Source of the DNA: Candidatus Nitrospira kreftii
GTDB taxonomy: Bacteria > Nitrospirota > Nitrospiria > Nitrospirales > Nitrospiraceae
Length of the DNA stretch: 64,000 nt
Direction: 5' to 3'
Assembly (NCBI GenBank): GCA_014058405.1
Contig: CP047423.1
Location: forward strand, 2,565,777 to 2,629,776
Positions within the stretch are counted from its first letter, which is position 1. The number at the start of each line of letters is the position of its first letter. The notes under the pieces are model-generated. The model was not told the origin of the DNA. It did no database searches and worked only from the letters and a program-made list of their open reading frames with translations. Made by a program: the position numbers and the translations under genes. Below are positions 6,963 through 52,327 of the stretch, one piece after another.

Positions 6963-7005
6963 CGCTCCTGATTCACCAATCGATCTCAACTGCTGCTGGT
7001 GAACC

Positions 7006-7033
7006 CTATCGGAAACTCATGGGCTAATCTTGA
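7006..7033 (-). promoter_or_regulatory. sigma-28 (FliA)-type promoter upstream of the PilZ gene
   Basis: The minus strand reads TCAAGATT-N12-TCCGATAG, against the consensus TCAAG/TAAAGTTT-N11-12-GCCGATAA. It lies about 45 nt upstream of the ATG at 6962. Confidence 0.45.
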
Positions 7034-7103
7034 GGGTGAGCGAACAGGACCGAGCACATCGGCATCGAACCGATCTCAACGCGATGGGATCCGCGGGTAA
7101 TCA

Positions 7104-7131
7104 TTAAGTTCAACGCCTCCTTCACCGATAA
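7104..7131 (+). promoter_or_regulatory. sigma-28 (FliA)-type promoter upstream of the HD-GYP/hybrid-kinase operon
   Basis: The plus strand reads TTAAGTTC-N12-ACCGATAA, about 70 nt upstream of the ATG at 7201. The architecture matches the flgM promoter in this window. Confidence 0.5.
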
Positions 7132-7200
7132 CATCCTCAGCTACTATTCTTCTGTCGGCGAATCCGACCGGCGCTCCTTCTGACTTGGAGTCTATGACCT

Positions 7201-8451
7201 ATGGCGACAAAGCGCATTGCAATCGAGCAGCTCATTCCCGGCATGTTCGTCGTCGAGATGGATGTTCCCTGGTACCGGACACCGTTTCTTTTTCATAAGC
7301 GACAGATCAACGATCTGCACACTATCGAGCTCATGAAGCAACATGGGATCCGGATGGTGACAATTGATACCAGCAAAGGAGCCGATCTCCCCTCAACGAC
7401 GACTCAACCGTCCGCAAACGTCGAGTCAGTCACTTCGAATGTTTCCCTTCCAGAGGAGCCCAACACTCAGCAGATAATCGAACACGCCCATGGTGATCAG
7501 CCCGCGCTGATCATATATGCGCAGGCACAAGAAGCAGTTGAGCGCATTTTTGATGACCTCGAGCGTGGAGTCCCGCCGACTCCCGAGGCGACAAAAGCCA
7601 TCGTCTCGAATGTCCTGAACCAAGTCCTCAATGACCGGGCTGCCATCGCAATTCAAGTTGCCGTTCAGAAAATCAAACAGTTCGATCGGTCTCTGACAAC
7701 CCACGCATTGGATGCCTGCATCTTGTCCCTTATCGTAGCCATTGAAAGCGAGCTCGATCGACCGCTGCAAGAATTGGTGGGAATGGGAGCCCTGCTCCAT
7801 GACGCAGGCTATGTCCGCCTCCCACGCAATCTGGTTCGGAAGCGAGACCAATGCACCGGGCAAGACAAGACACTACTGGAACAGCATTGTAAGCTCGGCG
7901 TGACACTCCTTTCGGAACGTCCCGGTATGCACGAGGATGTCCTTCGAATCGTGCGGGAGCATCATGAACGGGCAGACAAGAGCGGCTTTCCAGCCGGGCT
8001 TGATCATGACCAGATCTCACGCCTTGCTCAAATCGTCGGGATCGTCGATTTCTATGACGGCATGGTCAGTCGACGCGGGGCCCGGCCAGCAATGATTCCC
8101 CATGATGCCGTCCGGCAACTCTTCCTCGCTGGAGAACGGGGGCAATTTGAAAAGACCTTAGTGGAGGTGATGATTCGAAGCATCGGCGTCTACCCAGTTG
8201 GAAGTCTGGTCAGGCTCAACACAGGCGAACAGGCAGTAGTCGTCGGAGCCAACCCGCAGCAACGGCTTAAACCACTCGTCAAAGTCACGACCGATCCCCA
8301 AGGCGGCTCCTATGCGACACCGATCGAAATCGACCTAGCTGCGCCGTCCTCCGACCACACTGTACGGAGCGTGCTGCGTGTGCTCGACCCGGTTCGTGAG
8401 CGCGTCAATATCGGCATACATCTGGACACAACTCTGCCACGAGCCGCCTAA
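7201..8451 (+). CDS. HD-GYP domain c-di-GMP phosphodiesterase (DUF3391-type N-terminus)
   Basis: 416 aa. N-terminus 'IAIEQLIPGMFVVEMDVPWYRTPF'; HD motif 'GALLHDAGY'; 'HHERADKSGFPAGL', where the GYP motif reads GFP. Confidence 0.8.
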   Translation: MATKRIAIEQLIPGMFVVEMDVPWYRTPFLFHKRQINDLHTIELMKQHGIRMVTIDTSKGADLPSTTTQPSANVESVTSNVSLPEEPNTQQIIEHAHGDQPALIIYAQAQEAVERIFDDLERGVPPTPEATKAIVSNVLNQVLNDRAAIAIQVAVQKIKQFDRSLTTHALDACILSLIVAIESELDRPLQELVGMGALLHDAGYVRLPRNLVRKRDQCTGQDKTLLEQHCKLGVTLLSERPGMHEDVLRIVREHHERADKSGFPAGLDHDQISRLAQIVGIVDFYDGMVSRRGARPAMIPHDAVRQLFLAGERGQFEKTLVEVMIRSIGVYPVGSLVRLNTGEQAVVVGANPQQRLKPLVKVTTDPQGGSYATPIEIDLAAPSSDHTVRSVLRVLDPVRERVNIGIHLDTTLPRAA

Positions 8452-38515: not shown

Positions 38516-38928
38516 CCGTGCAACCGTCCTTCGCGCTAGCGCGCTTTACAACTGCAGTGCCGTACCAAGGTCTTGAATGATACCCTGCTCCTTTGTCTAA
38601 AGAGGTGTGTGCACTTAAACCTAAACCCAGAACAGGGCAAAGCTTTTTAAGAGCGTTGACATCGAGTGCCGCGTTACTTTAACTATTCTAAGAGAAGACG
38701 AGCTGTTATTCTCAGGCTTGATGAAAGGAGCATTGCGTATTGCGACGTAGGACTCTTCCCCTGTAATTCCATGAGATCATTACAACCAAGCAGCGCCTCA
38801 GGCAGCTCGAACAAACCAATGCATAGTAACTTGACCTGCCTCAGACGCGAAGTCACCCACTCATGTAAAAAACCTCAAAACCTACAGCACCCTTTGATTG
38901 ACTTATTGCACTAGCAATAACGCCTAAC

Positions 38929-39492
38929 TTATTTCAACCGTGACAAAATCAACTCAGCCACTCTCCCCTCAACGTCGATGAAGGTTTCATCGCGAGGAGC
39001 ACGCGTGTAGGGTTGAAAACGCACAGAAAAGACAATATTTTCCTTACGGACGAACAGCGCAGAAGACTCATAAGTCTCATCCCCTAGCCCTTCTATGAGC
39101 ATTACCTTTTCGTCGTGAATGGGTTCTGCTACGACGTGCAACCACTCTTTAGCCTTGCTGATAGAGTTCTCTGACCAAAAAGTGACGACAATCATCATGA
39201 CGTTTCTTTGAGTTCCGGTGTCCAGTTTCCGTGCTGGTGGAGCAATCCAAGAACACAGAGTCGAATTAGCCATATCGAAGAGTTTCTTGCCAGCATCACC
39301 TTTGGGATCATCTCTGAAATTCGCCCCAAGCTTGTGGTTGATGTCAGATACACGAATCAAGCTACATGGATCACGCGGCAGTAAAAGCGCGGCTAATACG
39401 GCTTCTTCCATTACGAGACTGTACACAACAATCCAGACAAGCAACGCATAAGGTTTGGTGAAATACTGTTGTAATAATCTCATAGAATTCAT
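38929..39492 (-). CDS. hypothetical N-terminally anchored protein
   Basis: 187-aa ORF with one N-terminal hydrophobic helix 'YALLVWIVVYSLVM'. I recognise no family. Confidence 0.45.
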   Translation of the reverse strand: MNSMRLLQQYFTKPYALLVWIVVYSLVMEEAVLAALLLPRDPCSLIRVSDINHKLGANFRDDPKGDAGKKLFDMANSTLCSWIAPPARKLDTGTQRNVMMIVVTFWSENSISKAKEWLHVVAEPIHDEKVMLIEGLGDETYESSALFVRKENIVFSVRFQPYTRAPRDETFIDVEGRVAELILSRLK

Positions 39493-39580
39493 CCCCCTGT
39501 TCCAGCTCCAGCAGCGTCACCATTTCCCGATGGTCCTTCCCAGCCGCCACGTAGAGCCGGGGATGCCAAACAACGGCAAC

Positions 39581-40297
39581 TCAGTTATCACCGGATTGGA
39601 GTAGCCAGACTTGAATCAAGATTCCTGCCAGGCCCACACCTCCAAATACAACCGCGACTTTCGCTAATACCACCCAAACAAAAGAGCCGATGTATTTATT
39701 GGCAGCACGCCATGCTCCTATTAACACCAGTGTTTCATACGCTGTATATATGAGCAATATGATAGCAAGCAATCCAATGGACGTAATAAGGTTCATTGCG
39801 AGGCCTACAGCAAATCCAACTGCCACTCCGTATAACCAGTAAGTCCTGGCTAAGCCGAATTCTCCAGTCACTAGCCTGCCAAAGAAGCCCCAAAGAAAAA
39901 TGATACCGGTGCCTCCCCCTAGAATCCACCAGAAAGAAAAGCCAGACAGAATATCATAGGCTGATAATGAAGGTTCTGAAGAAAGACCTTCAGGAATAAC
40001 CTTCAGGGTTCTAAGGTTATCAACCGCCGATTGATCAATGTATTCACCCCGCTGGTCACTTTCTGGTCCGACGCCTATGACATATCCTTTGGTTTCTATG
40101 TACAACCCAAACACATAGAGAAAATGATGTTTTATTGTGCTATAGCCAAAATACGCGTCTTCGAGGCCAGGGATTTCAACAGATTGAATCTTATGCAGCT
40201 CTTCGATAGTCCCCCATGGAATCGGAATCTTGACTTTTGCTTCCACATTACTCGAAATACCAAAGAGTAGGATCAAAACAATGACCAATGCCTTCAT
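39581..40297 (-). CDS. hypothetical membrane protein (signal peptide, ~100-aa exported domain, 4 C-terminal TM helices)
   Basis: 238 aa with signal peptide 'MKALVIVLILLFGISSNVEA' and a Gly/aromatic-rich TM bundle at the C-terminus. Confidence 0.5.
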   Translation of the reverse strand: MKALVIVLILLFGISSNVEAKVKIPIPWGTIEELHKIQSVEIPGLEDAYFGYSTIKHHFLYVFGLYIETKGYVIGVGPESDQRGEYIDQSAVDNLRTLKVIPEGLSSEPSLSAYDILSGFSFWWILGGGTGIIFLWGFFGRLVTGEFGLARTYWLYGVAVGFAVGLAMNLITSIGLLAIILLIYTAYETLVLIGAWRAANKYIGSFVWVVLAKVAVVFGGVGLAGILIQVWLLQSGDN

Positions 40298-40425
40298 GGC
40301 TCGTCATCCTTTCTTGCCTTCGCTAGCAAACGTAGAAGTCCATCATGATATATCCTTGTCCAGTTTCTGGGGGATCACTTTCTTAAAGTAGAATCATTTG
40401 GCAGTATATTCTGGACGGAGAGGAT

Positions 40426-40842
40426 CTACGGCTTGTCTTTGAGTCGCTTTTCAATCGCTTCGAGGCGAAGAAGAATTTTCCCTATAACCACATCAAGAGA
40501 GTCTAACCTCTGGGAAATGGCGATTTTCTCTGCTTCGTGTAGCTTCTCGAATCGACTGAGTATAAGTTTGATCTCTTCTTGTCTCACGTGGAGTTCATGC
40601 GCCTGATGCTGAACCTGTTCCAATTGTCCTCGTACCTGAGGCAGTTCCTGTTCGCGCAGAATAGAAATTTTCTTGTCCTGTTGGTCTATAGCTCTTGACA
40701 GCGTCAAAATATACTGCTTGTGTTCCTTAATCTCTGACTGCTTTACGACACATCCGGACAGAGTTGCGACACAAAGCAGCGGAAGAAGCCATACTGAACG
40801 GCTAATTATTCTTTCTGAACGCTGACTCATTGGCAAATCCAT
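40426..40842 (-). CDS. coiled-coil lipoprotein
   Basis: 138 aa with lipobox 'LSGC' followed by heptad-rich sequence. It starts 12 nt after the kinase stop. Confidence 0.55.
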   Translation of the reverse strand: MDLPMSQRSERIISRSVWLLPLLCVATLSGCVVKQSEIKEHKQYILTLSRAIDQQDKKISILREQELPQVRGQLEQVQHQAHELHVRQEEIKLILSRFEKLHEAEKIAISQRLDSLDVVIGKILLRLEAIEKRLKDKP

Positions 40843-40854
40843 CCATTTCGGTAG

Positions 40855-43029
40855 TCAGTGCGTACGGGCTTGTTCACCTTTACGACGTGCTTCCTCTCGA
40901 ACCGAAGGCTCTTCGGTTAAAGCCTGTCGTCGGGCCTCATTCATCGCATGTCGTGCGCGTTCCTTCTCTTCAAAGCTTCTGATTATGTCCGCAAATTCTT
41001 TTTCCACTTTATTCGTCACTGCCCCATTCATACGTAAAATTTTGACCACGTCCTCATGCCCGTTGCTAGCAGCGAGATGGAGCGGAGACAAGCCATCCTG
41101 ATCCACCTGATTCACCGCAGCCCCCTTCGCCAAAAGCAGCTCGACCACGTCCCGATGCCCCTTCTCGGCAGCGACAAAGAGCGAAGACCAGCCCAACGTA
41201 TCTTCTGTCAGGTTCACCGCAGCCCCTTTCGCCAAAAGCAGCTCGACCACGTCCCGATGCCCCCTCTCGCTAGCCAGAAGGAGCGGTGACCTGCCTTCCA
41301 CGCCTGTCTGGTTCACCGCGGCCCCCTTCGCCAAAAGCAGCTCGACCACGTCCCGATGCCCCTCCCCGGCAGCGAGAAAGAGCGGAGCTTGGCCGAACTC
41401 ATCCATCTGGTTCACCGCCGCCCCCTTCTCCAAGAGCAGCTTCACGACATCCAACTCTCCCTTTGCAGCAAACTTGCGTAGGTCTGACGCATTCTTCTCG
41501 CGCGCAAGCTCAGCGCGCTTGTCTGCATCCAATTTCAACCCAGAAAAGCGTTGTGATCGCACAGGGTTTTGGGGAACCTGAGAAGCACCCACTTGTTCAG
41601 GGGCAACAGGTTCGACTATCGCCCGCTGGTCTGTCTTCTTCTGTACGAAAGTCGGAGATGGAGACGAGCCCGAGCGCTTTTCCTCCTGGGCGCTTGCGGA
41701 GCTCGGTTGTGACACAGCAGGGTTCTGACGGTCATCACGCCCTTCCATGAACAGCGACAAAGTAAAGAGAGCAACACATATTGAAATTGCAGTACTGATA
41801 TGTTGCCTTTGTGCATTCCACACTTTCTCCCAATATCCAGGCGCAGGGGATGGACCTGGTATAGGCGATTGGGGTGGTAATTGTGGCGTGACTGGCGTGG
41901 GCCTGACGGTCGACCCGTTGGACACCGGAGTTGATTGTGCTTGTGGAGCGCGTACTTGTGCGGTATTGCAGACGTGGCAAGGTTTGGAGAAATGTTCACT
42001 TCGGTTGTCGGCAGGACAGGGGCGTACCTTCTTAGTATAGGTAATTGTATTCCAATGGGCTATCCACTCTTCCGCGCTGGGTCTGTTGTGCTCAGGACCT
42101 AGGAAGGCCCGTCGAAAAAGCTGGAGCGTGTCCTCTTCCAAGAGATGTGTCTGGTCTCCCTTAGGCTCGAACCCCCTTCGCTTCGGGTCAATGGAGAACA
42201 AGTTCTGCATGATTCGCTCACTTACCCCAGTAGGTTCATTAGAAGAACAATGCCTTCCTGCGGTAGGGAGATTCCCGTTGTTGAAGAGCTGGAACAGTAG
42301 GACCGCGAGTCCGAATCTCACTTGCTTATCGTCAAAGAGATCGCAAGCGAAGTCAGATGGACTCTTCGGATCTCGGAATTCCGAGGCAACAGCATCGGGA
42401 TGGGCGGCTTCTGCGGGAATGATCTGCGTGCCGCTACGAATCGCGAATCCGTCGCAGTCAATGAGTGTGATCCATCCGGCGTTCTTATGAAGCCGGAAGT
42501 TATCTGGGTTGAAATCTACCACCAAGTGACCGGCCTGGCGAACGTAGTTGATCATGGCACACAAGTTCCTTGCTGCCGATACTCGAAAAGTCCAATCCTT
42601 GCGGAGACCTTGCCTGGCTCGACTGCTCTCGGTAGTCAGGCTGTATATGGAAATGGTGTTGTGAAAATCGACGGTTCTCATGGTGAACCCGATGATCTGG
42701 TCGTGCTCATCAAGGAGAATCCGTTGCGGCCAGGCAATCTGCACGATGCTCGCCCCGTCATGCTGAATACTCTGATGTGCTGGAGGTGCTGCAAGCATCG
42801 CCTGCACTTTGGGGGCAAGCTGGAGAACCCGCTCTTTCTCCTTAGAGGTCACATTCTTGTAGACTTTTACAACTTCGATTCCATTCTGCAGCTGAAAAAC
42901 TTCGCCGATGCTCCCTGAGTTCAGATAGGTGCCTGTAAGGGTCTCGACCGATCCATTCCCGTTCTTCAAGCGGAATCGTCTTGTACTTGCATTAGCCATT
43001 GCGCTTTGCCCACAGTAACGTACAGTCAT
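40855..43029 (-). CDS. Ser/Thr-kinase-like protein with TM helix and C-terminal ankyrin repeats (TerY-P-type kinase)
   Basis: 724 aa. Kinase motifs are 'GSIGEV' (G-loop), 'VVKVYK', 'VVDFNPDNF' (catalytic loop D..P.N) and 'IDCDGF' (DFG-like). A Pro-rich linker and a TM helix 'ISTAISICVALFTLSLFM' follow. At least 4 ANK repeats read '...GHRDVVELLLAKGAAVNQ...'. An alternative ATG lies at 42999. Confidence 0.75.
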   Translation of the reverse strand: MTVRYCGQSAMANASTRRFRLKNGNGSVETLTGTYLNSGSIGEVFQLQNGIEVVKVYKNVTSKEKERVLQLAPKVQAMLAAPPAHQSIQHDGASIVQIAWPQRILLDEHDQIIGFTMRTVDFHNTISIYSLTTESSRARQGLRKDWTFRVSAARNLCAMINYVRQAGHLVVDFNPDNFRLHKNAGWITLIDCDGFAIRSGTQIIPAEAAHPDAVASEFRDPKSPSDFACDLFDDKQVRFGLAVLLFQLFNNGNLPTAGRHCSSNEPTGVSERIMQNLFSIDPKRRGFEPKGDQTHLLEEDTLQLFRRAFLGPEHNRPSAEEWIAHWNTITYTKKVRPCPADNRSEHFSKPCHVCNTAQVRAPQAQSTPVSNGSTVRPTPVTPQLPPQSPIPGPSPAPGYWEKVWNAQRQHISTAISICVALFTLSLFMEGRDDRQNPAVSQPSSASAQEEKRSGSSPSPTFVQKKTDQRAIVEPVAPEQVGASQVPQNPVRSQRFSGLKLDADKRAELAREKNASDLRKFAAKGELDVVKLLLEKGAAVNQMDEFGQAPLFLAAGEGHRDVVELLLAKGAAVNQTGVEGRSPLLLASERGHRDVVELLLAKGAAVNLTEDTLGWSSLFVAAEKGHRDVVELLLAKGAAVNQVDQDGLSPLHLAASNGHEDVVKILRMNGAVTNKVEKEFADIIRSFEEKERARHAMNEARRQALTEEPSVREEARRKGEQARTH
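41040..41470 (-). repeat. tandem 99-102-nt repeats encoding the ankyrin array
   Basis: A 51-nt core, ttcaccgcNgccccYttcgccaaaagcagctcgaccacgtcccgatgcccc, starts at 41111, 41213 and 41312. Copies differ from each other by 1-2 nt. More diverged copies lie on each side. Confidence 0.8.
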
Positions 43030-43774
43030 CGCCGCTGGTTTTTCTGACCGTGGGTTGATTCAGTAACTCTGCTAAGGCTTCTTCCCCAACTTGACCAGGA
43101 TGCGCATGCAGAAAGTTGAGAATCGGTTCGTAGAAGCGAGGTTTGGGTTGCGCGTCGGGGCCAACCGCAAACGGAGAGAATCCATCTGTCATCAATAGGA
43201 TGGACGAAACCGCTGCGGCTTTCGAAATGACCACATTCTCTCGCCAATTCGAATCGGTCAAAAAGGAAGTGATATTCGCAAATTCACTTGGTGTGCCATG
43301 CGAAACGGCTCTGATCTTAGCTGGTGATGCGCCATCAAAAGCAATTGCCAATCCATCACCTAGATGAAAGAAGACACCGCCTTGGCCATACAGCACCGCG
43401 CCCACGATGGTCGCAGAATAGTCATGTAACTTCTCGCCATGCGACGCCGCTGCGTCTCCGAGTGCTTGGCGTCCTTCGGACATTGCGGTCATGATTGCGT
43501 TAGGCACCGATGTGCCAAAACCATCGGTCGCGATCCGATCCACAATTGTCTGAGCAGCAAGAATTGCTCCCTCACCTCCTCGCGAGGCACTACCTGCGCC
43601 ATCGGCCACTACAGCGATGCAGCATAACCCCTCAGACCAACAGCAAAAAGCGTCCTGACAGGCAGACTCTCGTTTCTCGTGCAATGCGCCTCGGACCGCA
43701 CTCGCGCAAACTCTCCAATGGTCTGCGCCAAACGACTGGTTCGCCGGACCTAATGCTGCGATACGATAGGCCAT
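42992..43774 (-). CDS. PP2C-family Ser/Thr phosphatase
   Basis: 260 aa with 'CIAVVADGAGSASRGGEGA' and 'ILLMTDGF'. It overlaps the kinase start. Confidence 0.75.
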   Translation of the reverse strand: MAYRIAALGPANQSFGADHWRVCASAVRGALHEKRESACQDAFCCWSEGLCCIAVVADGAGSASRGGEGAILAAQTIVDRIATDGFGTSVPNAIMTAMSEGRQALGDAAASHGEKLHDYSATIVGAVLYGQGGVFFHLGDGLAIAFDGASPAKIRAVSHGTPSEFANITSFLTDSNWRENVVISKAAAVSSILLMTDGFSPFAVGPDAQPKPRFYEPILNFLHAHPGQVGEEALAELLNQPTVRKTSGDDCTLLWAKRNG

Positions 43775-43783
43775 CGGTGTAAT

Positions 43784-44467
43784 CTAGTTGATCTCAACCT
43801 CTATGGTAGTGGCTGGGGGGGCAGGTAGCTGGAGGCTCTTTTGACCATCAGATGAGTTAGCAAGATTCAGTAAAGAGCCTGTTAGCCATTCTTTAAGGAG
43901 CTGTGCAACATTGTGTTCGGTAACAGAATAGACCGTTCCCTTTCTTCCGAAACGTGCGAGCACACGGGTGTCCGCTGGTGGAATTCCAAATGCAAAGCAC
44001 ACCAACCTTTTCTCGGTGATTAGCCTCTGAACGTTATCTGCCGCCTCTTGCCAATCATCCGTCGGCGCTCCGTCGCTCATTAGTACCATCCAGGGAATGG
44101 TGTAGGGAGTGCCGGCTGCCTTCAAGTCTTGACGTTGAAGCTCGAGCTCTCCTATGGCTGCAGTGACGGCATCTCCCATGGGTGTGTCCCCATCGGCAAC
44201 CAATGTTGGCACCGAGATGTTGTCCAATGATTGCCTCTGTATGGGAGCGTCCACTCGGCCACCAAATGTGATTACGGTCAGCAAAATGGAATCAGCGAGT
44301 CGGTCCTCCTTTTTTGCCGCGTCAATAAAATCTGCCAGCCCCTTGTTTAGTATTCCAATTCGGTTATTGGTTTGCATTGAACCAGACGTATCCAATACAA
44401 GAATGACTGGGGTCCGCTTGACTGCATCGGTTAATTCCGCATCAATTGCTGGCCTGCGATCGTTCAT
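43784..44467 (-). CDS. von Willebrand factor A domain protein (TerY-like)
   Basis: 227 aa with MIDAS motif 'VLDTSGSM', 'LTVITFGG' and 'LMSDGAPTD'. Confidence 0.8.
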   Translation of the reverse strand: MNDRRPAIDAELTDAVKRTPVILVLDTSGSMQTNNRIGILNKGLADFIDAAKKEDRLADSILLTVITFGGRVDAPIQRQSLDNISVPTLVADGDTPMGDAVTAAIGELELQRQDLKAAGTPYTIPWMVLMSDGAPTDDWQEAADNVQRLITEKRLVCFAFGIPPADTRVLARFGRKGTVYSVTEHNVAQLLKEWLTGSLLNLANSSDGQKSLQLPAPPATTIEVEIN

Positions 44468-44537
44468 TGAATTCCTACTCCTTTCCTTACTCCATATCTC
44501 CTAATATTTCTGGCAGTCGGTCAGTGAATTCGATCTG

Positions 44538-44933
44538 CTATCTCCGAGTTGGTTGACGCACGACGGTTTGCTGTTGTTTGTTCGCCTGGCTCGGAGCTTG
44601 CGTGCTTTTTGGCGCAGTCGTCGTTGCTTTGACTGCCTGGCGCTTCCGATCGAGGATCGCCTGGTCACGCGCCTGCTTGTCCTTGGCAAGGACTTCGGCG
44701 CGGACTTTGTTCTCCTTGGCAATCCGAGCCTCTTCTTGCCGTCTGATTTCTAGATCGCGTTGTTTCTGTTGCTCTGAACGCAGGGTGGCTGGGATTTGCC
44801 TGAACTGCACCTCGGCCCGTGCCTTGATCAGACGTGGCTTGACCTGGCGTTCCCAGACCTTACCTGTGGCGGTCGTGAGCGATTGTCCTACGACCTGCGC
44901 GCCTATGTTCCCGAGGAAGTCCGTCGGTTTCAT
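44538..44933 (-). CDS. hypothetical basic coiled-coil protein
   Basis: I trimmed the track ORF (44538..44990) to the ATG at 44933, which lies 1 nt after the upstream stop. The sequence is 'MKPTDFLGNIG...' followed by a Lys/Arg/Glu/Gln-rich helix. Confidence 0.5.
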   Translation of the reverse strand: MKPTDFLGNIGAQVVGQSLTTATGKVWERQVKPRLIKARAEVQFRQIPATLRSEQQKQRDLEIRRQEEARIAKENKVRAEVLAKDKQARDQAILDRKRQAVKATTTAPKSTQAPSQANKQQQTVVRQPTRR

Positions 44934-44934
44934 T

Positions 44935-45330
44935 TCAGGGCTTCCTGGCGGCGCGGTTAAAGCTCGGGGTAATCGAGGGCGTGTTCGCAAGGCCTCGTTT
45001 CATAGACTGGCTACGGGTGGCTTGATTGGTCCGTGCCTGATTCACTGCAGCACGCACGGCGCTGCGTTTCTTTTGCTCGACCATCGTCATATTTTGTGCG
45101 GGTTTGCTGGGACGCATACCGGGCGGATTGAGCACCAGTTTAGGCGTTGGCTGCTGCTTGTTCACGGGCCCGGCTGCCGCAGCATTAAACGTTGGCTTGA
45201 CTTTTGGAGCGGCTAGCGCGGCTGCGTTGAAAGACTTAGAGAGCGTAGGTTTTCCAAGGGAGGGGCTCCGATTTCCTTGGGCAGCTTTCCGTAGCTCTAG
45301 TGCGCGAGCGACTGGATCTTTCTTCTGCAT
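44935..45330 (-). CDS. hypothetical basic low-complexity protein
   Basis: 131 aa with a strong GGGAGGAGG RBS. It is Lys/Ala/Pro/Asn-rich and carries three '(S/T)FN(A/R)AA' motifs. Confidence 0.5.
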   Translation of the reverse strand: MQKKDPVARALELRKAAQGNRSPSLGKPTLSKSFNAAALAAPKVKPTFNAAAAGPVNKQQPTPKLVLNPPGMRPSKPAQNMTMVEQKKRSAVRAAVNQARTNQATRSQSMKRGLANTPSITPSFNRAARKP

Positions 45331-45455
45331 AATGCTGGAACCTCCTCCCTGATAAGACCAATTAATCCCAAACTGACTTGTTAAAGGCGATGGGTGGGCA
45401 GACTATACAGAATCCCTAATCTCCTTTTCCAGTAGCAGCTCGGGCCTGTTCGCCC

Positions 45456-45471
45456 CCCTACTTTAGTAGGG
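45456..45471. promoter_or_regulatory. 16-bp palindrome in the divergent control region (candidate operator)
   Basis: CCCTACT-tt-AGTAGGG has perfect 7-bp arms. It sits centrally in the 219-bp gap between the triad operon and the TraG-like gene. Confidence 0.3.
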
Positions 45472-45549
45472 AGGGTAACGGCGATACCGTTCTTGTAATA
45501 GTGGGCACTCCTAATATTGATAACTCATCAGTGACAAGCGAAAGGCACT

Positions 45550-47256
45550 GTGCTTATGCAGCACGGAGTATTCTCACGTCTGATTACGAACCGTTTGTTG
45601 GTCTATGCCAGAATCAAACAACTCCTCATCGCGTCGGCGATTATTGGCCTGGCGGGGTATGTGGCCACTGTGGACACGTGGGAATTGCAAACCCGCGTGG
45701 TTATTGCGGGTTGTATTTTGCTGAGTGGAATATCTGGACTCATCTGGAGTGAGATTGAGCGTGTCAGGAAGACCCATGGATTCCGACTCTTCCCGCCTGG
45801 GACAGGGACCTTAGGGTCTCGACAGGCAAAAGCGAATGAACGGTTGGCGTCGATGTGGGAGCTCTGGACGTGGCGCTGGAAAAAGCCAGCCTGGAAAGGG
45901 GCGATTCGTTATGGACGTGTCCTTCCTGAGCACAGGTTCTTTGGATTTCCTCCCAACCTCAGAGTTGCGGGTCCGCCTGGTGATCCCAGGCATGTCATTA
46001 CGATTGCCGGTGCTCGCAGCGGAAAGGGGAGGGCCATGCTCGTTCCCAACCTGCTGTTATACGAAGGGTCTACGATCGTCGTTGATCCGAAGGGGCAACT
46101 TGCGGCTATTACGGCCAATGCGCGCGGGTCAGGGTCCTCCCGTGTGCGGAAGTCCCTAGGGCAGAACGTGTTCATCGTTGACCCTGAAAATATTGTCACG
46201 TCTCATCCTGTCAAGGCTTCGTTCAATCCGTTATTGGGGATCGACGAGAACGATAGGGAATCTGTACAGTACGCGAAGATCATTTCTGAAACGCTGATTC
46301 CCCAAACCAGCAGCTCGGACGCCAATGCTGAATTCTTCGTGAAGCAGGCACGGTCGTTGCTGGAAGCTGCCATACTCCATGTGGCGACGTTCGAGCCGGA
46401 GTCCTCTCGCCACTTACCACAGGTCCGTAAACTATTGCTGCAGGGTAATGACTTCGATCTGCACATTATCGAGGAAGAATTCGCGCTTGCCGGCATGGCG
46501 GCACCCGTCGACAATCCCATCGACGCGTTCATTTATATGATGTCCAGAAACCCGGCATTTGGTGGGGAAATCCAGGGCGTTGCAAATCGTCTCTTAGCCG
46601 CACAATCTTCACAGCGGGCCGATATTCTCGGTGAGCTCGGCAATGCCATTAGCTTTATCGGCACCCCGGGAATTCAAGATTTTCTCGATGGATCGGCAGG
46701 GCCGATGTTCAATTTTCAGCAACTGCGCGACAAAGCCACGACAATTTATATTTGCATGAGCAACACAGCGCTGCAGCGGCAGGAGCGAAATTTGCTGCGG
46801 ATGCTGGTTGAACTCGCGGCGGTCACACTTGAGCGGACGCCTAAGCGTAAAGAGGATTGGCCAGTTCTGATTCTTATGGATGAGTTTTATTCACTTGGAT
46901 ATTTGAAATCGATCGATGTTGGCATTGGTGCCTTTGCTGGGTATGGAATCCTGCTCTGGCCAGTTGTACAGTCAGTCACCCAACTGAAGGAGCATTACCC
47001 AAAGACCTGGGAGAATCTTTTGGCCAATTGTCGAGCGCAGCAGTATTTCGGTCAATTGGACCCTGAGACTCACAAACATCTTTCGGATCGTTTAGCAGGG
47101 TTGTACTCACCCGTTGAACTCGCGTCTAACATTTTTGCCATGGAGGATCGCCGCCAAGTCGTCACGTTTGCTGATCGGCCCACCTCGATGCTGGAATTGA
47201 CCTACTATGACGAGATTTTCCCCTCCAGCCATTACGATGTAGACCCCTATCTGTAG
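45550..47256 (+). CDS. TraG/VirD4/TraD-family type IV coupling protein-like ATPase (orphan)
   Basis: 568 aa with two N-terminal TM helices. Walker A 'ITIAGARSGKGRAMLVPNLL', 'STIVVDPKGQL', Walker B 'VLILMDEFYSLG' and 'LLWPVVQSVTQLKEHY'. Confidence 0.8.
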   Translation: MLMQHGVFSRLITNRLLVYARIKQLLIASAIIGLAGYVATVDTWELQTRVVIAGCILLSGISGLIWSEIERVRKTHGFRLFPPGTGTLGSRQAKANERLASMWELWTWRWKKPAWKGAIRYGRVLPEHRFFGFPPNLRVAGPPGDPRHVITIAGARSGKGRAMLVPNLLLYEGSTIVVDPKGQLAAITANARGSGSSRVRKSLGQNVFIVDPENIVTSHPVKASFNPLLGIDENDRESVQYAKIISETLIPQTSSSDANAEFFVKQARSLLEAAILHVATFEPESSRHLPQVRKLLLQGNDFDLHIIEEEFALAGMAAPVDNPIDAFIYMMSRNPAFGGEIQGVANRLLAAQSSQRADILGELGNAISFIGTPGIQDFLDGSAGPMFNFQQLRDKATTIYICMSNTALQRQERNLLRMLVELAAVTLERTPKRKEDWPVLILMDEFYSLGYLKSIDVGIGAFAGYGILLWPVVQSVTQLKEHYPKTWENLLANCRAQQYFGQLDPETHKHLSDRLAGLYSPVELASNIFAMEDRRQVVTFADRPTSMLELTYYDEIFPSSHYDVDPYL

Positions 47257-47451
47257 CAGCAGAAAGCAGATGCGATCTCTCATGACGAAGACGGGCAAGA
47301 CTTGCAATGAAAAGCTTCAAAGGGTCGTAAGGAGGAATAATCTCCTACTGAACAATCAAGCCAATGGGGGCAACTGCCGATCCTAATGATTCACTGTCCG
47401 AATCCATAGCCGTGGATCTGAGCGGATAACGAAAGCGCTTATCCTCGAGAT

Positions 47452-47901
47452 CTACCGGTTCACCATTAACTCGAACACATGTGTGGACGAGTCTGACACC
47501 GCTCTCACCTGGCGACCGTCGACACTGAAATCGACAGTCCACCATGTCTCTCGATCGCCAGGCAGGGCCTGTTCACCTGAAACGCCACCCGTCTCAAGAT
47601 TGTAGATTCGGACAAAGTTTTCATAGCGATACTCGCCGTCAAGTGGATCCTTGTTGCATCTGATGCTTCCAGCGATGGCCAGAAGTTTCACCTTCGGTGA
47701 GAGCGCGAAGTCGGACCATTGATTTGCAAAGTCCTTAAACTCTACCTTCGCGACGATGTCACGTCGACGAGTATCGAAGAGACAGACCCCCTGGCTCGTC
47801 AGATAGAGAAGGTGGGCACCGTTATCGAGCAGCTTAAATGCTCGAATGTCATTGGCCCAGTGTCCATCGAATTCGAAAGATTTCACCGATCGGAATTTCA
47901 T
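47452..47901 (-). CDS. hypothetical beta-rich (propeller-like) protein, probably the 3' part of a disrupted gene
   Basis: 149-aa ORF. The same frame stays open 60 nt upstream of its ATG (see findings). Confidence 0.4.
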   Translation of the reverse strand: MKFRSVKSFEFDGHWANDIRAFKLLDNGAHLLYLTSQGVCLFDTRRRDIVAKVEFKDFANQWSDFALSPKVKLLAIAGSIRCNKDPLDGEYRYENFVRIYNLETGGVSGEQALPGDRETWWTVDFSVDGRQVRAVSDSSTHVFELMVNR

Positions 47902-48323
47902 ACCTCTGGCCGAGAACAGGAATCTGCCCGTCGCATCGACGAGCGAGACGCCGGAACGTATCTAGAGGCGACCGCCATAAACGGCTGGTGCGCGATCCAC
48001 AAACAGTCGCCCGCATACACGCATGTCGACGGATAGCCTAGTGAGTACATGCCATCGACCAGATAGCCTACTGTGGCGCCCTGCTGATCGAGAATTGGAT
48101 GCCGCTTCGATTCAAAGCGCCCAGGGTCAGGAAGCCGCAGAGGTCCAATCGCGCGTGGATTCTGCGAGAATGATGTATCGATCCAATCATCGTTACATAG
48201 CCGTTCCGCCTGGCGAAAAGAGGTTTCACTGTTGTGAAACTGAATCCGGAATGACATAGGATCTGCTTTCTGAATGAAGCCCCTGATGATACCTGAAATA
48301 GTTCCCAGTGACCTGCCTGTCAC
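47898..48323 (-). CDS. hypothetical protein, probably the 5' part of a disrupted gene
   Basis: 141-aa ORF with an Arg/Ser-rich tail typical of out-of-frame reading. It overlaps the next ORF as ATGA. Confidence 0.35.
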   Translation of the reverse strand: MTGRSLGTISGIIRGFIQKADPMSFRIQFHNSETSFRQAERLCNDDWIDTSFSQNPRAIGPLRLPDPGRFESKRHPILDQQGATVGYLVDGMYSLGYPSTCVYAGDCLWIAHQPFMAVASRYVPASRSSMRRADSCSRPEV

Positions 48324-48514
48324 CCACTACGAGGTTGTGGGATCTCCCGTTCGGGCACATCGCACGAAAAGACTGCTCGTGGCAATAGACCTAACTTCGT
48401 AAATGCGCACTTTCTCCATCTGCGGAACGGCGTTCAAATCGAGCCTTGACCTACATGCATCTCGCCTCAGCATACTCACGCACAAGTAAGGGCCGAGTCA
48501 TCTTGACCGCCTTA

Positions 48515-49132
48515 TTAAACGGTTCTAACGAGCATGATTGGGAGACGTGCTTTGACCTCGGAGTCCCATATCCACCTATCGGCGTTCGCCGCCCACGCGC
48601 AGTTGTGTTTTGATCTGAGGAACGGGAACCACCAGGTGTGCAGGAGAGCTTCATGGCGCTCGGTAGCAGTCCAATAGTATTGATCACAGCCAAGCTGCAA
48701 CACAGTGGCTCTTTTCTCAAGATCAGAATCTCGGAGTCCCAAAAGCGTGTACCATTCAGCGAGAGTTGGAAGGCGCCAGTCATCATGCCCAGCAAATACC
48801 ACACGACGCGTACCCCGTGTATACCCAAAATTAATCCCTGTCGAGCGGAACTGATCTGCCGAGAGACCGATGGTGCCGCACTCTGAAAGCCCAACTCGCA
48901 CCCCGCAACCGAACTGTTGCTTGGCTTCCACCCACGAATAAAGGGAAGGCGAACCTAAGAACTCACGCCCATTCCAGTGCATTCCCCACGGAGCCTGTAT
49001 CCACATCAGACCAGCTTCTTCGCAAGTAGCCGTCCCATTTCCGATGACAGTCCAAGAGACCTTGCGTGGACCCCAAAAGTGGCCTATGTCTTCCAGACCT
49101 GTAGGAAGCTCCCACTTAAGAATAATGCTCAT
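48515..49132 (-). CDS. DUF1566 (Lcl C-terminal-like) domain protein
   Basis: 205 aa. 'GHDDWRLPTLAEWYTLL' and 'YYWTA' match the DUF1566 W-R-L-P-T...E pattern. Confidence 0.55.
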   Translation of the reverse strand: MSIILKWELPTGLEDIGHFWGPRKVSWTVIGNGTATCEEAGLMWIQAPWGMHWNGREFLGSPSLYSWVEAKQQFGCGVRVGLSECGTIGLSADQFRSTGINFGYTRGTRRVVFAGHDDWRLPTLAEWYTLLGLRDSDLEKRATVLQLGCDQYYWTATERHEALLHTWWFPFLRSKHNCAWAANADRWIWDSEVKARLPIMLVRTV

Positions 49133-49287
49133 CCTTTTGCTCCCAGCTCTCCTTCGCTCACTTCCTTGTTTGCGACTCTCGACGTCGGCACTCGGACTGG
49201 CTGCAGTAGGTCGTTCCGGATGCGTACCTGTTATTCCGGAGACGCCTCAACTGACCCTTAATCTTGCCTTTCCACTGTGGTCAACAG

Positions 49288-49923
49288 TTACCTCTTTGTC
49301 TGATTGAGCGTTTCGTTGAGTTGAGATAGAAAAGTGGTCATGGATCTATCGACAGAAGCCCCTACATTGTCTAGCGCTTCTCCAAGAGATTTAAACCCGG
49401 CGATGATAGCTTCGCGAGTCCTCCGAATTTCGAAGTTCATTGAGAAGTTGTCCGTCGTCTGCCCCTGACAAATCACCCGATGTAGTTCGAATGACAGCGA
49501 TCTAAGATCAGGCACCAGCGAGGTAGATACTGGGAACTGCGGAAAGTTGTGCTGCCTGCCTCGCAAGTTAGAAGAATACATTTCAGCGTAGCGAGACAGT
49601 TCTTTAAGGTTCTCTTGGCATGTTGAAAGCTGAATTATTGAATCTTGAATTCTGTCCCAGAACGGAGACGGCGCGTTTTCTCGAAACTCGTGCTGGGCTT
49701 GATTGATAAGTGATTCAGTCGTATGAATGTTTTGTCTCAACGCTTTGATCTCTTGAAGAGAAGACGCCACATAATCTTTTGTGTTTTGGGTACCAGATTC
49801 AGCCTCCCGCAAGCTCTCCTGACGATAGTCAGCATTAGCCGTCAGGCTTCTTTGGACTGCATCCCTCTCTCTGAGAGCATCGATTGCCCACGAGCGGACG
49901 AGCGTGGCGACAACGAATGGCAA
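49288..49923 (-). CDS. hypothetical coiled-coil protein (5' end probably extends to 50114 through a frame disruption)
   Basis: The 211-aa ORF starts at a TTG inside a hydrophobic helix. The frame is open upstream to 50073 (see findings). Confidence 0.4.
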   Translation of the reverse strand: MPFVVATLVRSWAIDALRERDAVQRSLTANADYRQESLREAESGTQNTKDYVASSLQEIKALRQNIHTTESLINQAQHEFRENAPSPFWDRIQDSIIQLSTCQENLKELSRYAEMYSSNLRGRQHNFPQFPVSTSLVPDLRSLSFELHRVICQGQTTDNFSMNFEIRRTREAIIAGFKSLGEALDNVGASVDRSMTTFLSQLNETLNQTKR

Positions 49924-50264
49924 GAACCAAACCCACCACGTTTTCTCTTTTTCGATGTTCTCTAGAAAGCTAACCGCAACTATGGTTGTCGCGACCCATA
50001 TTACGGCCCCCAGGACGTCCAGCTGTCGCTGCTCTTTAGTTCTGATGCTGTGACTGTCTTCGGGGCCAACGGCTCAATCCTGCACCCCTCAATGGATTTG
50101 ACGATCTGGTTCATCGTTGTCTCCCGAGTTCATCAGGCCTGAACTCCTCGCGTGACAGGCACCGCAATTTTCGCAGCGTCTCTCATGAAGCGGTTGTTCG
50201 GATCATACGCCGACTTTTTTGTGAACGCGCTTGTGTCCACCGTAGTACTCGCACATCAATCAGC

Positions 50265-50498
50265 CTACATTCCGATTGCTGCTGTAATGTCCCTAGACAG
50301 TTTCCACATGGTTTGAATTTTCGTCTTCGATGGCTCTGTGTATCGTTCCACAACTATTTCTGATACGCGTCGGTCCTTCTCCGTGAATTCCATGAGCACC
50401 TCACTGTTGGAAAGATCAAAGTGACGGTGTAGAAGGCAGACCCCAACTCGTTCCGTATAGTTGTGCTTTTCTAGGACGGTGCGGATATCGTTCAGCAC
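50265..50498 (-). CDS. small hypothetical protein
   Basis: 77-aa ORF from a GTG, containing 'VGVCLLHRHFDLSNSEVLMEF'. The frame is open upstream to 50564 (see findings). Confidence 0.4.
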   Translation of the reverse strand: MLNDIRTVLEKHNYTERVGVCLLHRHFDLSNSEVLMEFTEKDRRVSEIVVERYTEPSKTKIQTMWKLSRDITAAIGM

Positions 50499-50745
50499 GT
50501 CGAAGTTCTCGTCATCAATGTCAGGAAGAGATGCCCATTGGACCGGCTGTAAAGCGAATCTTAGTCATATCGGTATTCTCCTTTGTCTTTGACCGATCTC
50601 AGACCGAGTCATGCTTCAGTCTCTCATTGATCAAGGAACCATCCATGCCTCGGCGAAGGGGTTAGCTCCTGTCCGTGACCTACAACAACGTCTCTGAAAA
50701 TATCGCAGAGAATCTCATCCATGGAGGCTCGATTTCGGATCGTCA

Positions 50746-51120
50746 TCAATCTCCTGGTCTTCTCTGCAGGATGTCCATTAAAATCTTGACTGCAAGGTAG
50801 TGGGCCACCGCTTGCTCATAACGCCATTGTCCATCGATCAAAATGGAATAGCATTCACCAATGACGAGCCCTTCGGTTGTGTCCACATAGTGGTCGATAC
50901 CACCTCCGTTCAGAGCCACATGGACCACCTGTCCAGGACCGATCCATCCTCGATCAGCCGTCCTGCATTGTCCTTCCTGAAAAAATAACGTGTGAGATAA
51001 CCGCACAATAGGGCGCTCCCCCGGCACCATAGCCGTGACGGTTGCGAAAGTCTGCAAGCTCGGATCGGGAAGGTTATCATTCCTTGAGGTTGTTCCAAAT
51101 TTGTCGGTTCTGTCTTCCAT
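50746..51120 (-). CDS. hypothetical protein
   Basis: I trimmed the track ORF (50746..51174) to the ATG at 51120 ('MEDRTDKFG...'), which is preceded by GAAGGTGG. I recognise no family. Confidence 0.4.
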   Translation of the reverse strand: MEDRTDKFGTTSRNDNLPDPSLQTFATVTAMVPGERPIVRLSHTLFFQEGQCRTADRGWIGPGQVVHVALNGGGIDHYVDTTEGLVIGECYSILIDGQWRYEQAVAHYLAVKILMDILQRRPGD

Positions 51121-51790
51121 GTTGGCCACCTTCGTTCGTAAAGAACGGCCGTCCTTTCGATTGGTACGATACAAAACGTGAAATAACTTATGCCTTCCAT
51201 CACAACATATTGGGAGATTTCCGCTACAAGAGCGACTCTAGCTTGGAACATCCCTCTTTTCAACAGGCCTTCTTCACCCCGTGCATGTGCAGCTCATCAT
51301 TGAAACTGGACCGAGGCAGATTAGCCATATCCGTTGATAGGGCAGCCTACACACCCATCACTTCTCTCGCTGAAAGGTCGGTGATATATGATGATGAATC
51401 CTGGCTGGCTTTCTCTCCTGGAGGCTTCTCACCCGAACATGGAAGCCAATTTCAACGACCGGGACTGCACAGCGACAACGAGGCAGAGCGGCCTTACGAG
51501 CAGCGCACATGAGCAGCTCTGCTGGCATGCGGCGATGCAGGCCGGCAGGGTATTTACAATCCCCTCGCAAATCATCATCAAGGGAGACGGGCCATCTCGT
51601 CATGAGGGAAAGGGCTATCCGCGAGAAAAGCTGACGCGGAACATGAGGGTCCGGCCAAGTGACCGCTTGGGTTCATCCCGCTGGCTCGGATGTGGTGCAA
51701 AGGAATGCTGAGGGGCCAGAGGCGAGAGGTCCAGGACGAACAATCGACAGTCTAAAGAAAGGTGGCGAGTGGGTACGTAGCCGTGTGCAG

Positions 51791-52327
51791 TCAGTCGGAG
51801 CTTCGGGGTTCTTTTATGCGATTCATTCGTGCGTCGAGGTCGTGGGACATCTTTTCCAGGACGGCGACTTGGGCATTCATGATCAGGGCAAACGCTCGCT
51901 TGTAGATCTCCAAGGCCTCCTCCTTGCTGTGCGCCTCGTCAATATGAGATTTCAGGTAGTCACCCACTTCGTTTCCGGCGAAGTACCATTCATCCTGTTG
52001 CTCTTTGGTGAACCACATGCGAACCAGGAAAAACGTCTCGTGCCTCCACTGCGCCTCATCATCATCATTGGGCGCGGTGAGAGTCGCCACGTTCTCTATC
52101 AGCCGAAGCCCTTTCGCGCACTGGGTGGCCAACTGAGCCTTCGCCTCGAACAACTTGGCACGTTCTGTCAGCGTCGCAAAGATTTGGTGGCTCGTCTGAT
52201 TGTACCGATCTAAAGCCGTCATAGCGCTGTCTTGATCGAGATTCATGGGGGAATTTTCTTGCCCGAAGGCACTCCCGATCGAGAACAAACCAAGAACCAG
52301 TATCAATGCATACCGTGTGAGCGTCAT
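51791..52327 (-). CDS. hypothetical secreted all-alpha protein
   Basis: 178 aa with signal peptide 'MTLTRYALILVLGLFSIGSAFG'. Confidence 0.45.
   Translation of the reverse strand: MTLTRYALILVLGLFSIGSAFGQENSPMNLDQDSAMTALDRYNQTSHQIFATLTERAKLFEAKAQLATQCAKGLRLIENVATLTAPNDDDEAQWRHETFFLVRMWFTKEQQDEWYFAGNEVGDYLKSHIDEAHSKEEALEIYKRAFALIMNAQVAVLEKMSHDLDARMNRIKEPRSSD

Follow-up and report, generated by a model that had tools for sequence, protein, structure and literature searches.

A membrane-anchored TerY-P-like triad with an orphan VirD4/TraG-like coupling protein in a comammox Nitrospira: a candidate conflict or signalling cassette

In the modules described as TerY-P, a von Willebrand factor A (vWA) protein resembling TerY and a PP2C-family phosphatase are encoded together with a serine/threonine kinase that bears a zinc ribbon at its C-terminus (Anantharaman, Iyer and Aravind, 2012, per the relevant passages of Bell et al., 2024, PMC11090510); the content of the 2012 paper is taken here to the extent that the citing papers PMC11090510 and PMC4978471 relate it. 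By the account in those passages of PMC11090510, the TerY-P module tested by Gao et al. (2020) has a kinase with a C-terminal OB (oligonucleotide/oligosaccharide-binding) fold, and in CoCoNuT operons TerY-like vWA genes flank EssC-like, SpoVK-like and VirB4-like ATPases together with small helical proteins. Another group of comparable systems, the membrane-proximal DO-GTPase (GAP1-N2) conflict systems, encodes HSP70 and, in some cases, a set of PP2C, vWA and a kinase with a zinc ribbon or transmembrane (TM) helices (Kaur et al., 2020, PMC7159879). Here, a locus of Candidatus Nitrospira kreftii, a comammox Nitrospira, is described in which a membrane-anchored triad of this kind adjoins the genes of an orphan VirD4/TraG-like ATPase and of two small basic proteins, referred to below as A and B. 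The locus lies in a stretch of 64,000 nucleotides (nt), the window, to which all coordinates given without a locus name refer; exact protein matches to it carry the accessions QPD04889-QPD04892.

The original prediction, an earlier reading of the window without database searches, had proposed an operon of six co-directional genes. All six can be found as open reading frames (ORFs) on the minus strand and encode, in order of transcription, A (131 amino acids, aa; 44935-45330), B (131 aa from its ATG; 44538-44933), a stand-alone vWA protein (227 aa; 43784-44467), a PP2C-family Ser/Thr phosphatase (260 aa; 42992-43774), a kinase continuing into a predicted TM helix and ankyrin (ANK) repeats (724 aa; 40855-43029) and a coiled-coil lipoprotein (138 aa; 40426-40842). 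The ORF coordinates also reproduce the proposed spacing, namely 1 and 70 nt, then 9 nt between the vWA gene and the PP2C gene downstream of it, an overlap of 38 nt (8 nt from the second ATG) and finally 12 nt. Copies of the locus that are 100% identical occur in three independent Logan metagenome contigs, in which the gene callers agree on the starts, with the exception of the lipoprotein, called slightly shorter at 134 aa; because the locus recurs in independent assemblies and in other taxa, the six genes are considered real. A seventh gene lies on the plus strand, divergent from A across a 219-bp intergenic region, and encodes an orphan type IV coupling-protein ATPase of the VirD4/TraG family (45550-47256; 45556 is the start chosen by the gene callers). 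This gene had been taken for a mere TraG-like flank, which has to be corrected, as it is the most consistently conserved partner. The cassette comprises these seven genes in the window, in Nitrospira sp. RSF12 and in the metagenome contig L096, and six of them are shared with Burkholderiales.

Regarding the ATPase, Pfam matches were obtained to T4SS-DNA_transf (3e-50), TraG-D_C (8.5e-17) and TrwB_AAD_bind (3e-11), NCBIfam names it VirD4/TraG, and a weak match to Cag5 can be found in the PDB. Like the type IV coupling proteins VirD4, TraG and TrwB, it combines these domains with two N-terminal TM helices, predicted from hydropathy, and with Walker A (GARSGKG) and Walker B (LILMDEF) motifs that are intact and conserved. 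Unlike them, it has no Pfam-detected relaxase or type IV secretion system (T4SS) in its surroundings: ten ORFs at 47.4-55.0 kb gave no Pfam match to relaxase, VirB4 or other T4SS families, only to Lcl_C, flagellar and unrelated ones, and neither relaxase nor T4SS genes are listed in the gene tables of the Paraburkholderia and Variovorax loci (L085 and L086). The gene would thus be an orphan at the locus, with conjugation machinery in neither the island nor the minimal cassettes. It also belongs to a distinct clade, with at least 59% identity across phyla and tied to A, B and the triad; divergently oriented homologues of 59-89% identity adjoin A, B, vWA, PP2C and kinase genes in L085, L086 and L096. 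In contrast, the neighbours of more distant homologues (29-35% identity) are relaxase, ParB or resolvase genes or restriction-modification genes, as would be expected of ordinary mobilisation coupling proteins.

The composition of the unit formed by the ATPase, A, B and the triad can be stated with high confidence, since it recurs across phyla. Relatives of the triad were collected by scanning one genome per species with a six-sequence kinase alignment, which gave 226 relatives, and 80 loci were retrieved. Among the first 84 loci, homologues of A, B, the lipoprotein and the ATPase can be found in Nitrospira loci only, with the exception of a VirD4-like gene in the Bryobacteraceae locus L006. 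The peptide pattern of this family scan missed the relatives in Burkholderiales, which were found only through VirD4 homologues. The nearest of these outside Nitrospira are those of Paraburkholderia agricolaris (63% identity) and Variovorax sp. PBL-H6 (59%), and both loci reproduce the layout of the window exactly, with the genes of A, B, vWA, PP2C and a long kinase pointing away from that of the VirD4-like protein. With kinases at 47-48%, vWA proteins at 55-56% and PP2C phosphatases at 51-53% identity to those of the window, all parts of the Burkholderiales cassettes have diverged together (47-63%). In Variovorax the six genes stand alone amid unrelated metabolic genes, and this isolation is the best evidence that they constitute a self-contained cassette. 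In L006 the order is a homologue of the 238-aa accessory protein discussed below, an A-like protein (228 aa, in which an NPPG motif and repeats of the TF(N/H)AAA type can be found), vWA, PP2C, a kinase with TM segment, a CsgG-like lipoprotein and the VirD4-like ATPase.

An exchange of modules can be seen in L096, a Logan metagenome contig found by a profile search with A. Its VirD4-like ATPase (89% identity), B (83%), Lcl_C-domain gene (66%), A (60%) and lipoprotein (54%) are related to those of the window, whereas its triad is distant (vWA 33%, PP2C 24-26%, kinase 26%); the kinase, of 862 aa, has the same zinc ribbon, TM and ANK architecture and the same C-terminal tail as the window protein. 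The swapping of the triad inside a conserved frame of VirD4, A, B and lipoprotein argues that triad and frame work together, and it fits the pattern of constant cores and highly variable components reported by Kaur et al. (2020, PMC7159879). The same contig also encodes a second, soluble kinase paralogue of 487 aa followed by a small Cys-rich protein (L096:8836-10299).

These comparisons bear on the possibility that a plain TerY-P-like triad has come to lie by the remnant of a mobilisable element, i.e., an orphan coupling protein and two junk ORFs, and by unrelated envelope genes, so that only the triad genes would cooperate. Such a coincidence would be in line with the occurrence of the 29-35% VirD4 homologues in ordinary mobile elements, with the location of the Paraburkholderia copy in a region containing IS110, Lar and ParB, and with the lack of VirD4 in most triads (78 loci). 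It is already disfavoured, however, and we regard it as highly improbable: Nitrospirota and two Burkholderiales genera have the ATPase gene in the same divergent position beside A and B, all parts diverging proportionally, the gene set can also be found in Acidobacteriota, the six Variovorax genes come without other mobile genes, the triad slot of L096 has been refilled by a distant triad of the same architecture, and the ATPase has kept its motifs.

A is Lys/Ala/Pro-rich, strongly basic (25 Lys and Arg against 3 Asp and Glu) and probably disordered. The three (S/T)FN(A/R)AA motifs noticed earlier are indeed present (SFNAAA, TFNAAA and SFNRAA), the third lying in the conserved extreme C-terminal tail KRGLANTPSITPSFNRAARKP, and an alignment of homologues displays a repeated (T/S)P-x-FN-(K/A/R)-A-A element together with a tail of the form K-x-GL(A/S)NTPS(I/M)-x-x-x-FN(K/R)..(R/K). 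A search against 1.84 billion representative proteins gave two matches and a profile search four, and no match was obtained in Pfam, NCBIfam, PHROGs or PADLOC. As the family is not enumerable by sequence search, its motif was scanned for in 98 loci (1.52 Mb) and the window. ORFs with motifs of the TPxFNxAA type can be found in the window and nine loci, always beside a VirD4-like gene of the cassette type, and the motif is absent from the other 89 scanned loci, including 78 triads without VirD4 and five coupling proteins linked to relaxases or mobile genetic elements. A therefore tracks the VirD4-like ATPase, not the triad. As for B, which contains 29 Lys and Arg, it consists of a conserved N-terminal segment, a charged helix rich in Glu, Lys, Arg and Gln and a basic tail; it has no family match in Pfam, NCBIfam, PADLOC or PHROGs, and homologues occupy the same position in L086 (tblastn 3.6e-12), L085 and L096. 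The conservation of both proteins in Paraburkholderia, Variovorax and L096 bears out the proposal that they are genuine partners.

One of these nine loci is L087, in which a VirD4-like gene (35% identity) can be found at 6980-10194 with an uncalled A-like ORF ending in KLTPTFNRVAR and a gene for a 306-aa basic disordered protein. Its neighbours encode GrpE, HSP70, an FN3-rich protein of 1010 aa and DO-GTPase2, there is no triad on the contig, and the pair of ATPase and A here accompanies a conflict-system core of another kind.

The triad itself is of a known kind. An intact metal ion-dependent adhesion site (MIDAS) had been predicted in the vWA protein, and the assignment holds: Pfam VWA matches at 1.5e-6, and 78-79 of 79 homologues retain the MIDAS residues D26-x-S28-x-S30, T95 and D132. 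A likeness to TerY in particular is weakly supported, the PADLOC match being sub-threshold (E=0.0045). The phosphatase matches Pfam PP2C_2 over the full profile (1.4e-35), in agreement with the PP2C-like annotation in the source genome. vWA, PP2C and kinase genes occur together in 81 of the 84 loci, the remaining three being short or truncated contigs, and the window triad is a member of this membrane-anchored family. As had been suggested, it fits the published TerY-P module, with a stand-alone MIDAS vWA protein, a PP2C and a Ser/Thr kinase followed by a zinc ribbon, encoded by adjacent co-directional genes as a contiguous unit; mobile islands and the partnership with an ATPase of the FtsK/HerA superfamily and small helical proteins are further common points. 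The links of TerY-P to EssC- and VirB4-like members of this superfamily provide a precedent for a VirD4 partner.

The locus also exceeds a plain three-gene triad, as originally proposed, by its conserved partners A, B and VirD4. Compared with TerY-P triads, the window kinase runs on into a TM helix and a predicted extracytoplasmic repeat domain, the partner ATPase is VirD4/TraG-like with TM helices and not EssC-, SpoVK- or VirB4-like, the disordered basic proteins A and B stand instead of WXG100 proteins, and no McrBC/CoCoNuT or other nuclease module lies near the cassette. With the module of Gao et al. (2020) it shares a three-gene set of vWA, PP2C and kinase able to stand alone as a cassette; that kinase carries an OB fold in the account given by PMC11090510, whereas neither Pfam nor the AlphaFold2 (AF2) models detect an OB fold in the C-terminus of the window kinase, where a zinc ribbon, a Pro-rich linker, a TM helix and five ANK repeats can be found instead. 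PADLOC does not recognise TerY-P in the locus, the sub-threshold TerY match being its sole match to a TerY-P component. Due to this non-detection and to the difference between OB fold and zinc ribbon, the anti-phage role reported for the module of Gao et al. (2020) is not transferable by membership. In common with the DO-GTPase systems (PMC7159879), the window has a kinase fused to a zinc ribbon or TM helices, a PP2C and a stand-alone vWA protein, a set described for those systems as regulators; unlike them, it has no DO-GTPase, GAP1, HSP70 or tubulin gene, and neither VirD4 nor TraG turned up in a word search of PMC7159879.

Most of the 226 species of the family scan are uncultured gut Alphaproteobacteria (Azospirillaceae-like metagenome-assembled genomes; loci L008-L084), in which the triads are compact and the kinases end in two or three TM segments with tails of about 14 aa; in a minority of the family kinases, a single TM helix is combined with a large domain at the C-terminus. 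The triad can also be found in Klebsiella, Stenotrophomonas, Hahella and Enterobacillus. A scan of metagenomes with an alignment of close-clade kinases gave only five distant loci, and when plasmids were searched with the kinase, all relatives were below 30% identity. In the metagenomic relative L001:6959-16865, a DUF4384 protein is encoded upstream of the triad and three caspase-like (Peptidase_C14) proteins downstream, of which one is a fusion to FGE-sulfatase; toxin-antitoxin genes (ParE/PhdYeFM) can be found near this triad, and the whole resembles a typical conflict-system neighbourhood.

The assignment of the 724-aa protein as a kinase stands by structure and by homology, although the direct profile test fails: its N-terminal 358 residues have no Pfam match even at E<=10, and phmmer found nothing relevant among PDB sequences. 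A homologue search gave 20 relatives of 27-37% identity, most of them with a precomputed PF00069 match, and in their alignment K55, D172, N177, D191-C-D193-G-F and E217 are invariant or near-invariant. The AF2 model built on the homologue alignment (predicted local distance difference test score, pLDDT, 86.5; predicted template modelling score 0.88) matches more than 1800 solved protein kinases in Foldseek, including CASK, CaMKII and CK2 at E of about 1e-10. Judging from this model, a divergent eukaryote-like kinase fold is established for aa 1-335 (42025-43029, minus strand), with uncertain activity. Directly after the domain and before a hydrophobic segment, C338, H344, C351 and C354 (41968-42018) occupy columns that are invariant or nearly so; they would form a putative zinc ribbon, modelled by AF2 as a small hairpin with moderate confidence.

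These same data bear on whether the Nitrospira kinase is catalytically impaired and would serve as a membrane scaffold for vWA, PP2C and ATPase, with a signal other than phosphotransfer. The catalytic loop lacks its Lys (DFNPDN for the family consensus DLKPxN), the VirD4-linked clade has a degenerate Gly-rich loop, the alignment gives no sign of a conserved alpha-C Glu, the atypical kinase CASK and the pseudokinase STK40 are among the best structural matches, and Pfam Pkinase fails on the window protein. In favour of catalysis, there is no or almost no variation in the beta-3 Lys, the catalytic Asp, the Asn and the metal-binding motif DxD(G)F, and the intact PP2C kept in every locus argues for real phosphorylation. 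A pure scaffold is accordingly considered decidedly unlikely.

Behind the kinase and a Pro-rich linker, a single hydrophobic helix can be found at aa 410-428 (41746-41802; hydropathy 1.88), followed by a disordered linker. The TM helix of the original prediction is supported by hydropathy, by the AF2 model, in which a helix spans aa 399-430, and by the family, in which 81 of 84 kinases bear one to three TM segments at a constant distance behind the zinc-ribbon motif. The model of aa 331-724 places the TM segment in a long helix and also contains disordered linkers, long terminal helices and five ANK repeats, the latter at pLDDT 85-96. At least four repeats had been announced; the array is confirmed (Pfam Ank/Ank_2 at about 1e-34) and the count is corrected to five, as five helix pairs are modelled, with designed ankyrin repeat proteins (DARPins) as the best Foldseek matches (42-49% identity). 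The repeats (40999-41499), predicted to be periplasmic, are consensus-like and precede a long charged C-terminal helix reaching to 40855. They are encoded by a tandem DNA repeat of four 99-nt units (Tandem Repeats Finder), and their number is five in the window (41044-41441), four in RSF12 (L005:9995-12070; 691 aa) and three in the Logan copy L002 (9114-11087). The four-repeat version may be real. The three-repeat form corresponds to an exact 201-nt deletion in an otherwise identical sequence and was rejected as biological variation, as it is probably an assembly collapse, two other contigs ending inside the repeats. The PADLOC matches of this protein to MzaA, PDC-M72A and Dot/Icm Ank reflect generic ANK and coiled-coil sequence and were likewise rejected as evidence.

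In the Paraburkholderia and Variovorax kinases, zinc ribbon, Pro-rich linker and TM helix are followed not by ANK repeats but by SH3 (SH3_3) and TPR-like domains. These SH3b and TPR domains, typically extracytoplasmic, stand where the window has ANK, which supports the envelope-facing arm suggested earlier. The pairs PknB/PstP and PpkA/PppA combine a cytoplasmic kinase, a single TM helix, an extracytoplasmic sensor and a cognate PP2C; PpkA/PppA gates type VI secretion, with the outer-membrane lipoprotein TagQ upstream. By analogy with these receptor kinases, the window protein would have a similar kinase-TM-sensor build with its own PP2C. It differs in lacking PASTA or FHA domains, its sensor being ANK or SH3b-TPR and the machine a lone coupling protein, and its vWA protein is separate and cytoplasmic whereas that of PpkA is a periplasmic domain.

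With such an architecture, the triad might instead serve as housekeeping envelope signalling, i.e., a PknB-like receptor kinase and phosphatase for cell wall, division or flagella. Besides the kinase-TM-sensor build common to receptor Ser/Thr kinases, the location would agree with this, as the block lies between a gene of the FtsW/RodA family and the flagellar genes FliJ/FliI. However, the block (38898-49152 and 51791-52194) is common to Nitrospira sp. RSF12, at 83-89% DNA identity, with different flanks: in RSF12 the adjoining gene, whose N-terminus we take to resemble glycyl-tRNA synthetase alpha, has no similarity to the FtsW side of the window. The GC content of the block is below that of its flanks (0.49-0.52 against about 0.54-0.55), the distribution is patchy across phyla with swapping of modules, and only a handful of homologues can be found in very large databases. 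A housekeeping role is thus held to be scarcely probable, and horizontal mobility of the cassette is the best explanation, because the block occupies different genomic contexts in the two Nitrospira genomes.

The lipoprotein has the leader WLLPLLCVATLSGC, in which a hydrophobic segment (aa 16-34) ends in the predicted lipobox LSGC with Val at +2; at the level of the pattern [LVI][ASTVI][GAS]C, the earlier assignment is upheld. As a general member of the cassette, as the original prediction would have it, the protein does not stand: homologues are confined to the window, L002, L005 (RSF12, two copies) and L096, none was found in L085 or L086, and in Bryobacteraceae the position is taken by a CsgG-like lipoprotein. 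The PADLOC LmuB match to the lipoprotein is generic coiled-coil and was rejected as evidence. In RSF12 (L005:12048-13533) the two lipoprotein paralogues are separated by a small Cys-rich ORF, the window having one copy. Small Cys-rich proteins of the form GCPxC...CGxCQAxNC...CxxCG can be recognised by eye in three cassettes of different taxa (L096:10474-10836, L005:12662-13036 and L085:4746-5081); an assignment to the TerY-C metal-binding domain was rejected as unsupported, no significant Pfam family being matched. Next to the lipoprotein gene, at 39581-40297 on the minus strand, a possible accessory membrane protein of 238 aa is encoded, for which hydropathy predicts a signal peptide, about 110 aa of periplasmic domain and TM helices at the C-terminus. 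It has no family match but a conserved counterpart in L005, and the L006 gene directly upstream of the A-like gene shows homology to its N-terminal domain (BLASTP 1e-9).

Given these envelope parts, the cassette might be a device for regulated protein export, in which the VirD4-like ATPase would recognise the C-terminal basic tail of A, and perhaps of B, and translocate them unfolded over the inner membrane, with kinase and PP2C as a post-translational gate, comparable to PpkA/PppA. Coupling proteins classically recognise C-terminal signals of their substrates, and the conserved C-terminal motif of A and its strict co-occurrence with the ATPase agree with this; the sensing domain of the kinase and the lipoprotein are predicted to be periplasmic. 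The Bryobacteraceae lipoprotein, encoded between kinase and VirD4-like genes, matches the Pfam family for the curli production assembly/transport component (2e-24), and the CsgG family forms an outer-membrane pore for unfolded substrates. A precedent also exists in the association of a TerY-like vWA protein with an EssC-like ATPase and small WXG100 proteins, interpreted as secretion in the passages of PMC11090510 concerned. Against export, there is no Pfam match to VirB-type channel parts in the window island or in the Variovorax gene tables, CsgG occurs in one locus only, and A and B have no signal peptide, nor is an exported role evident for them. We consider export unlikely.

The interpretation put forward here is that of a horizontally mobile, membrane-associated conflict or signalling cassette, gated by phosphorylation and sensing the envelope, which we hold tentatively, at a little less than even confidence. 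The kinase appears to be built as a receptor, with a cytoplasmic kinase and zinc ribbon, one TM helix and a variable extracytoplasmic domain (ANK in Nitrospira, SH3b and TPR in Burkholderiales). Helped in Nitrospira-type loci by the outer-membrane-type lipoprotein, the periplasmic repeat domain would sense a cue at the envelope, for instance damage to it or the machinery of a phage or of conjugation. The kinase would then phosphorylate partners in the cytoplasm, for which the vWA protein and the TP/SP-rich motifs of A are candidates, while PP2C would reset the phospho-switch and the MIDAS site of the vWA protein would act as an adaptor assembling the complex. The hexameric VirD4-type ATPase may serve as motor or effector, to which A would dock by its conserved C-terminal tail and whose target would be DNA or the proteins A and B. 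On a bolder version, which we find possible but rather doubtful, the ATPase and A would form a portable effector or sensor module plugging into at least two cores, the TerY-P triad and the HSP70/DO-GTPase core of L087, and a coupling protein would have been co-opted for membrane defence against incoming DNA or phage under the control of periplasmic receptor-kinase signalling.

Several points weigh against a phosphorylation-gated conflict cassette. No recognisable toxin or nuclease effector is encoded, and PADLOC has no match for PP2C, kinase domain or VirD4, either in the window or in the Klebsiella, alphaproteobacterial and Bryobacteraceae relatives. The predicted topology of the kinase, with cytoplasmic catalytic domain, one TM helix and extracytoplasmic repeats, is drawn from hydropathy and analogy, and only a weak charge bias can be seen around the TM helix, with +1 N-terminal and -1 C-terminal to it. 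The atypical catalytic loop and the degenerate Gly-rich loop imply that the kinase may be weak or a pseudokinase. About six independent loci only back the VirD4 linkage, and the 78 other triad loci have no VirD4 within 10 kb. A and B are of low complexity, with weak homology outside the motif, and it is purely inferred that A would be a ligand of the ATPase or a substrate of the kinase.

In the searchable literature, with the primary paper of 2012 represented by its citing papers, the coupling of a membrane TerY-P triad to an orphan VirD4/TraG protein, the proteins A and B and the exchangeable periplasmic domains are apparently new. TerY-P triads being widespread, the cassette offers a compact, testable case for their input and output, the candidate input being the receptor-like kinase with its exchangeable periplasmic domain and the candidate output the coupling-protein ATPase with its co-occurring disordered partner; versions of it are present in Paraburkholderia and Variovorax, which can be cultivated. 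Should a conflict system have recruited the ATPase from conjugation, bacterial immunity would gain a new motor class, and the reported link of TerY-like vWA proteins to FtsK/HerA-type ATPases would be extended. For comammox Nitrospira, which are important nitrifiers and genetically hard to study, few candidate loci of defence or conflict have been described, and the locus is one of them.

Between the VirD4-like gene and A, an imperfect palindrome (GTTCGCCCCCCTACT / AGTAGGGAGGGTAAC; 45448-45479) with the core CCCTACT-AA-AGTAGGG can be found. L005 and L096 both keep its core (CCCTAC...GTAGGG), in L096 amid diverged surroundings, and the palindrome may be an operator. Long antisense ORFs (up to 212 aa) lie opposite A and B (44578-45216, plus strand) and opposite the kinase gene (41286-42918, plus strand). 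They were rejected as genes and taken as by-products of composition, the gene caller on the Logan copy L002 calling A, B and the kinase there.

As a whole, the island (about 38900-52300, roughly 10-13 kb) interrupts a flagellar and FtsW neighbourhood, with FlgE, FlgD and FliK-like genes upstream and FliJ and FliI downstream. No tRNA was found in the window, and the island ORFs scanned have no Pfam match to integrase or relaxase families. Other island ORFs (149, 141, 211, 142 and 184/178 aa) gave nothing meaningful in Pfam, PADLOC or PHROGs, and the latter two likewise had no meaningful match for the lipoprotein or the VirD4-like ATPase. A protein with an Lcl_C domain is encoded in the island at 48515-49132 and also accompanies the cassette in L005 and L096.

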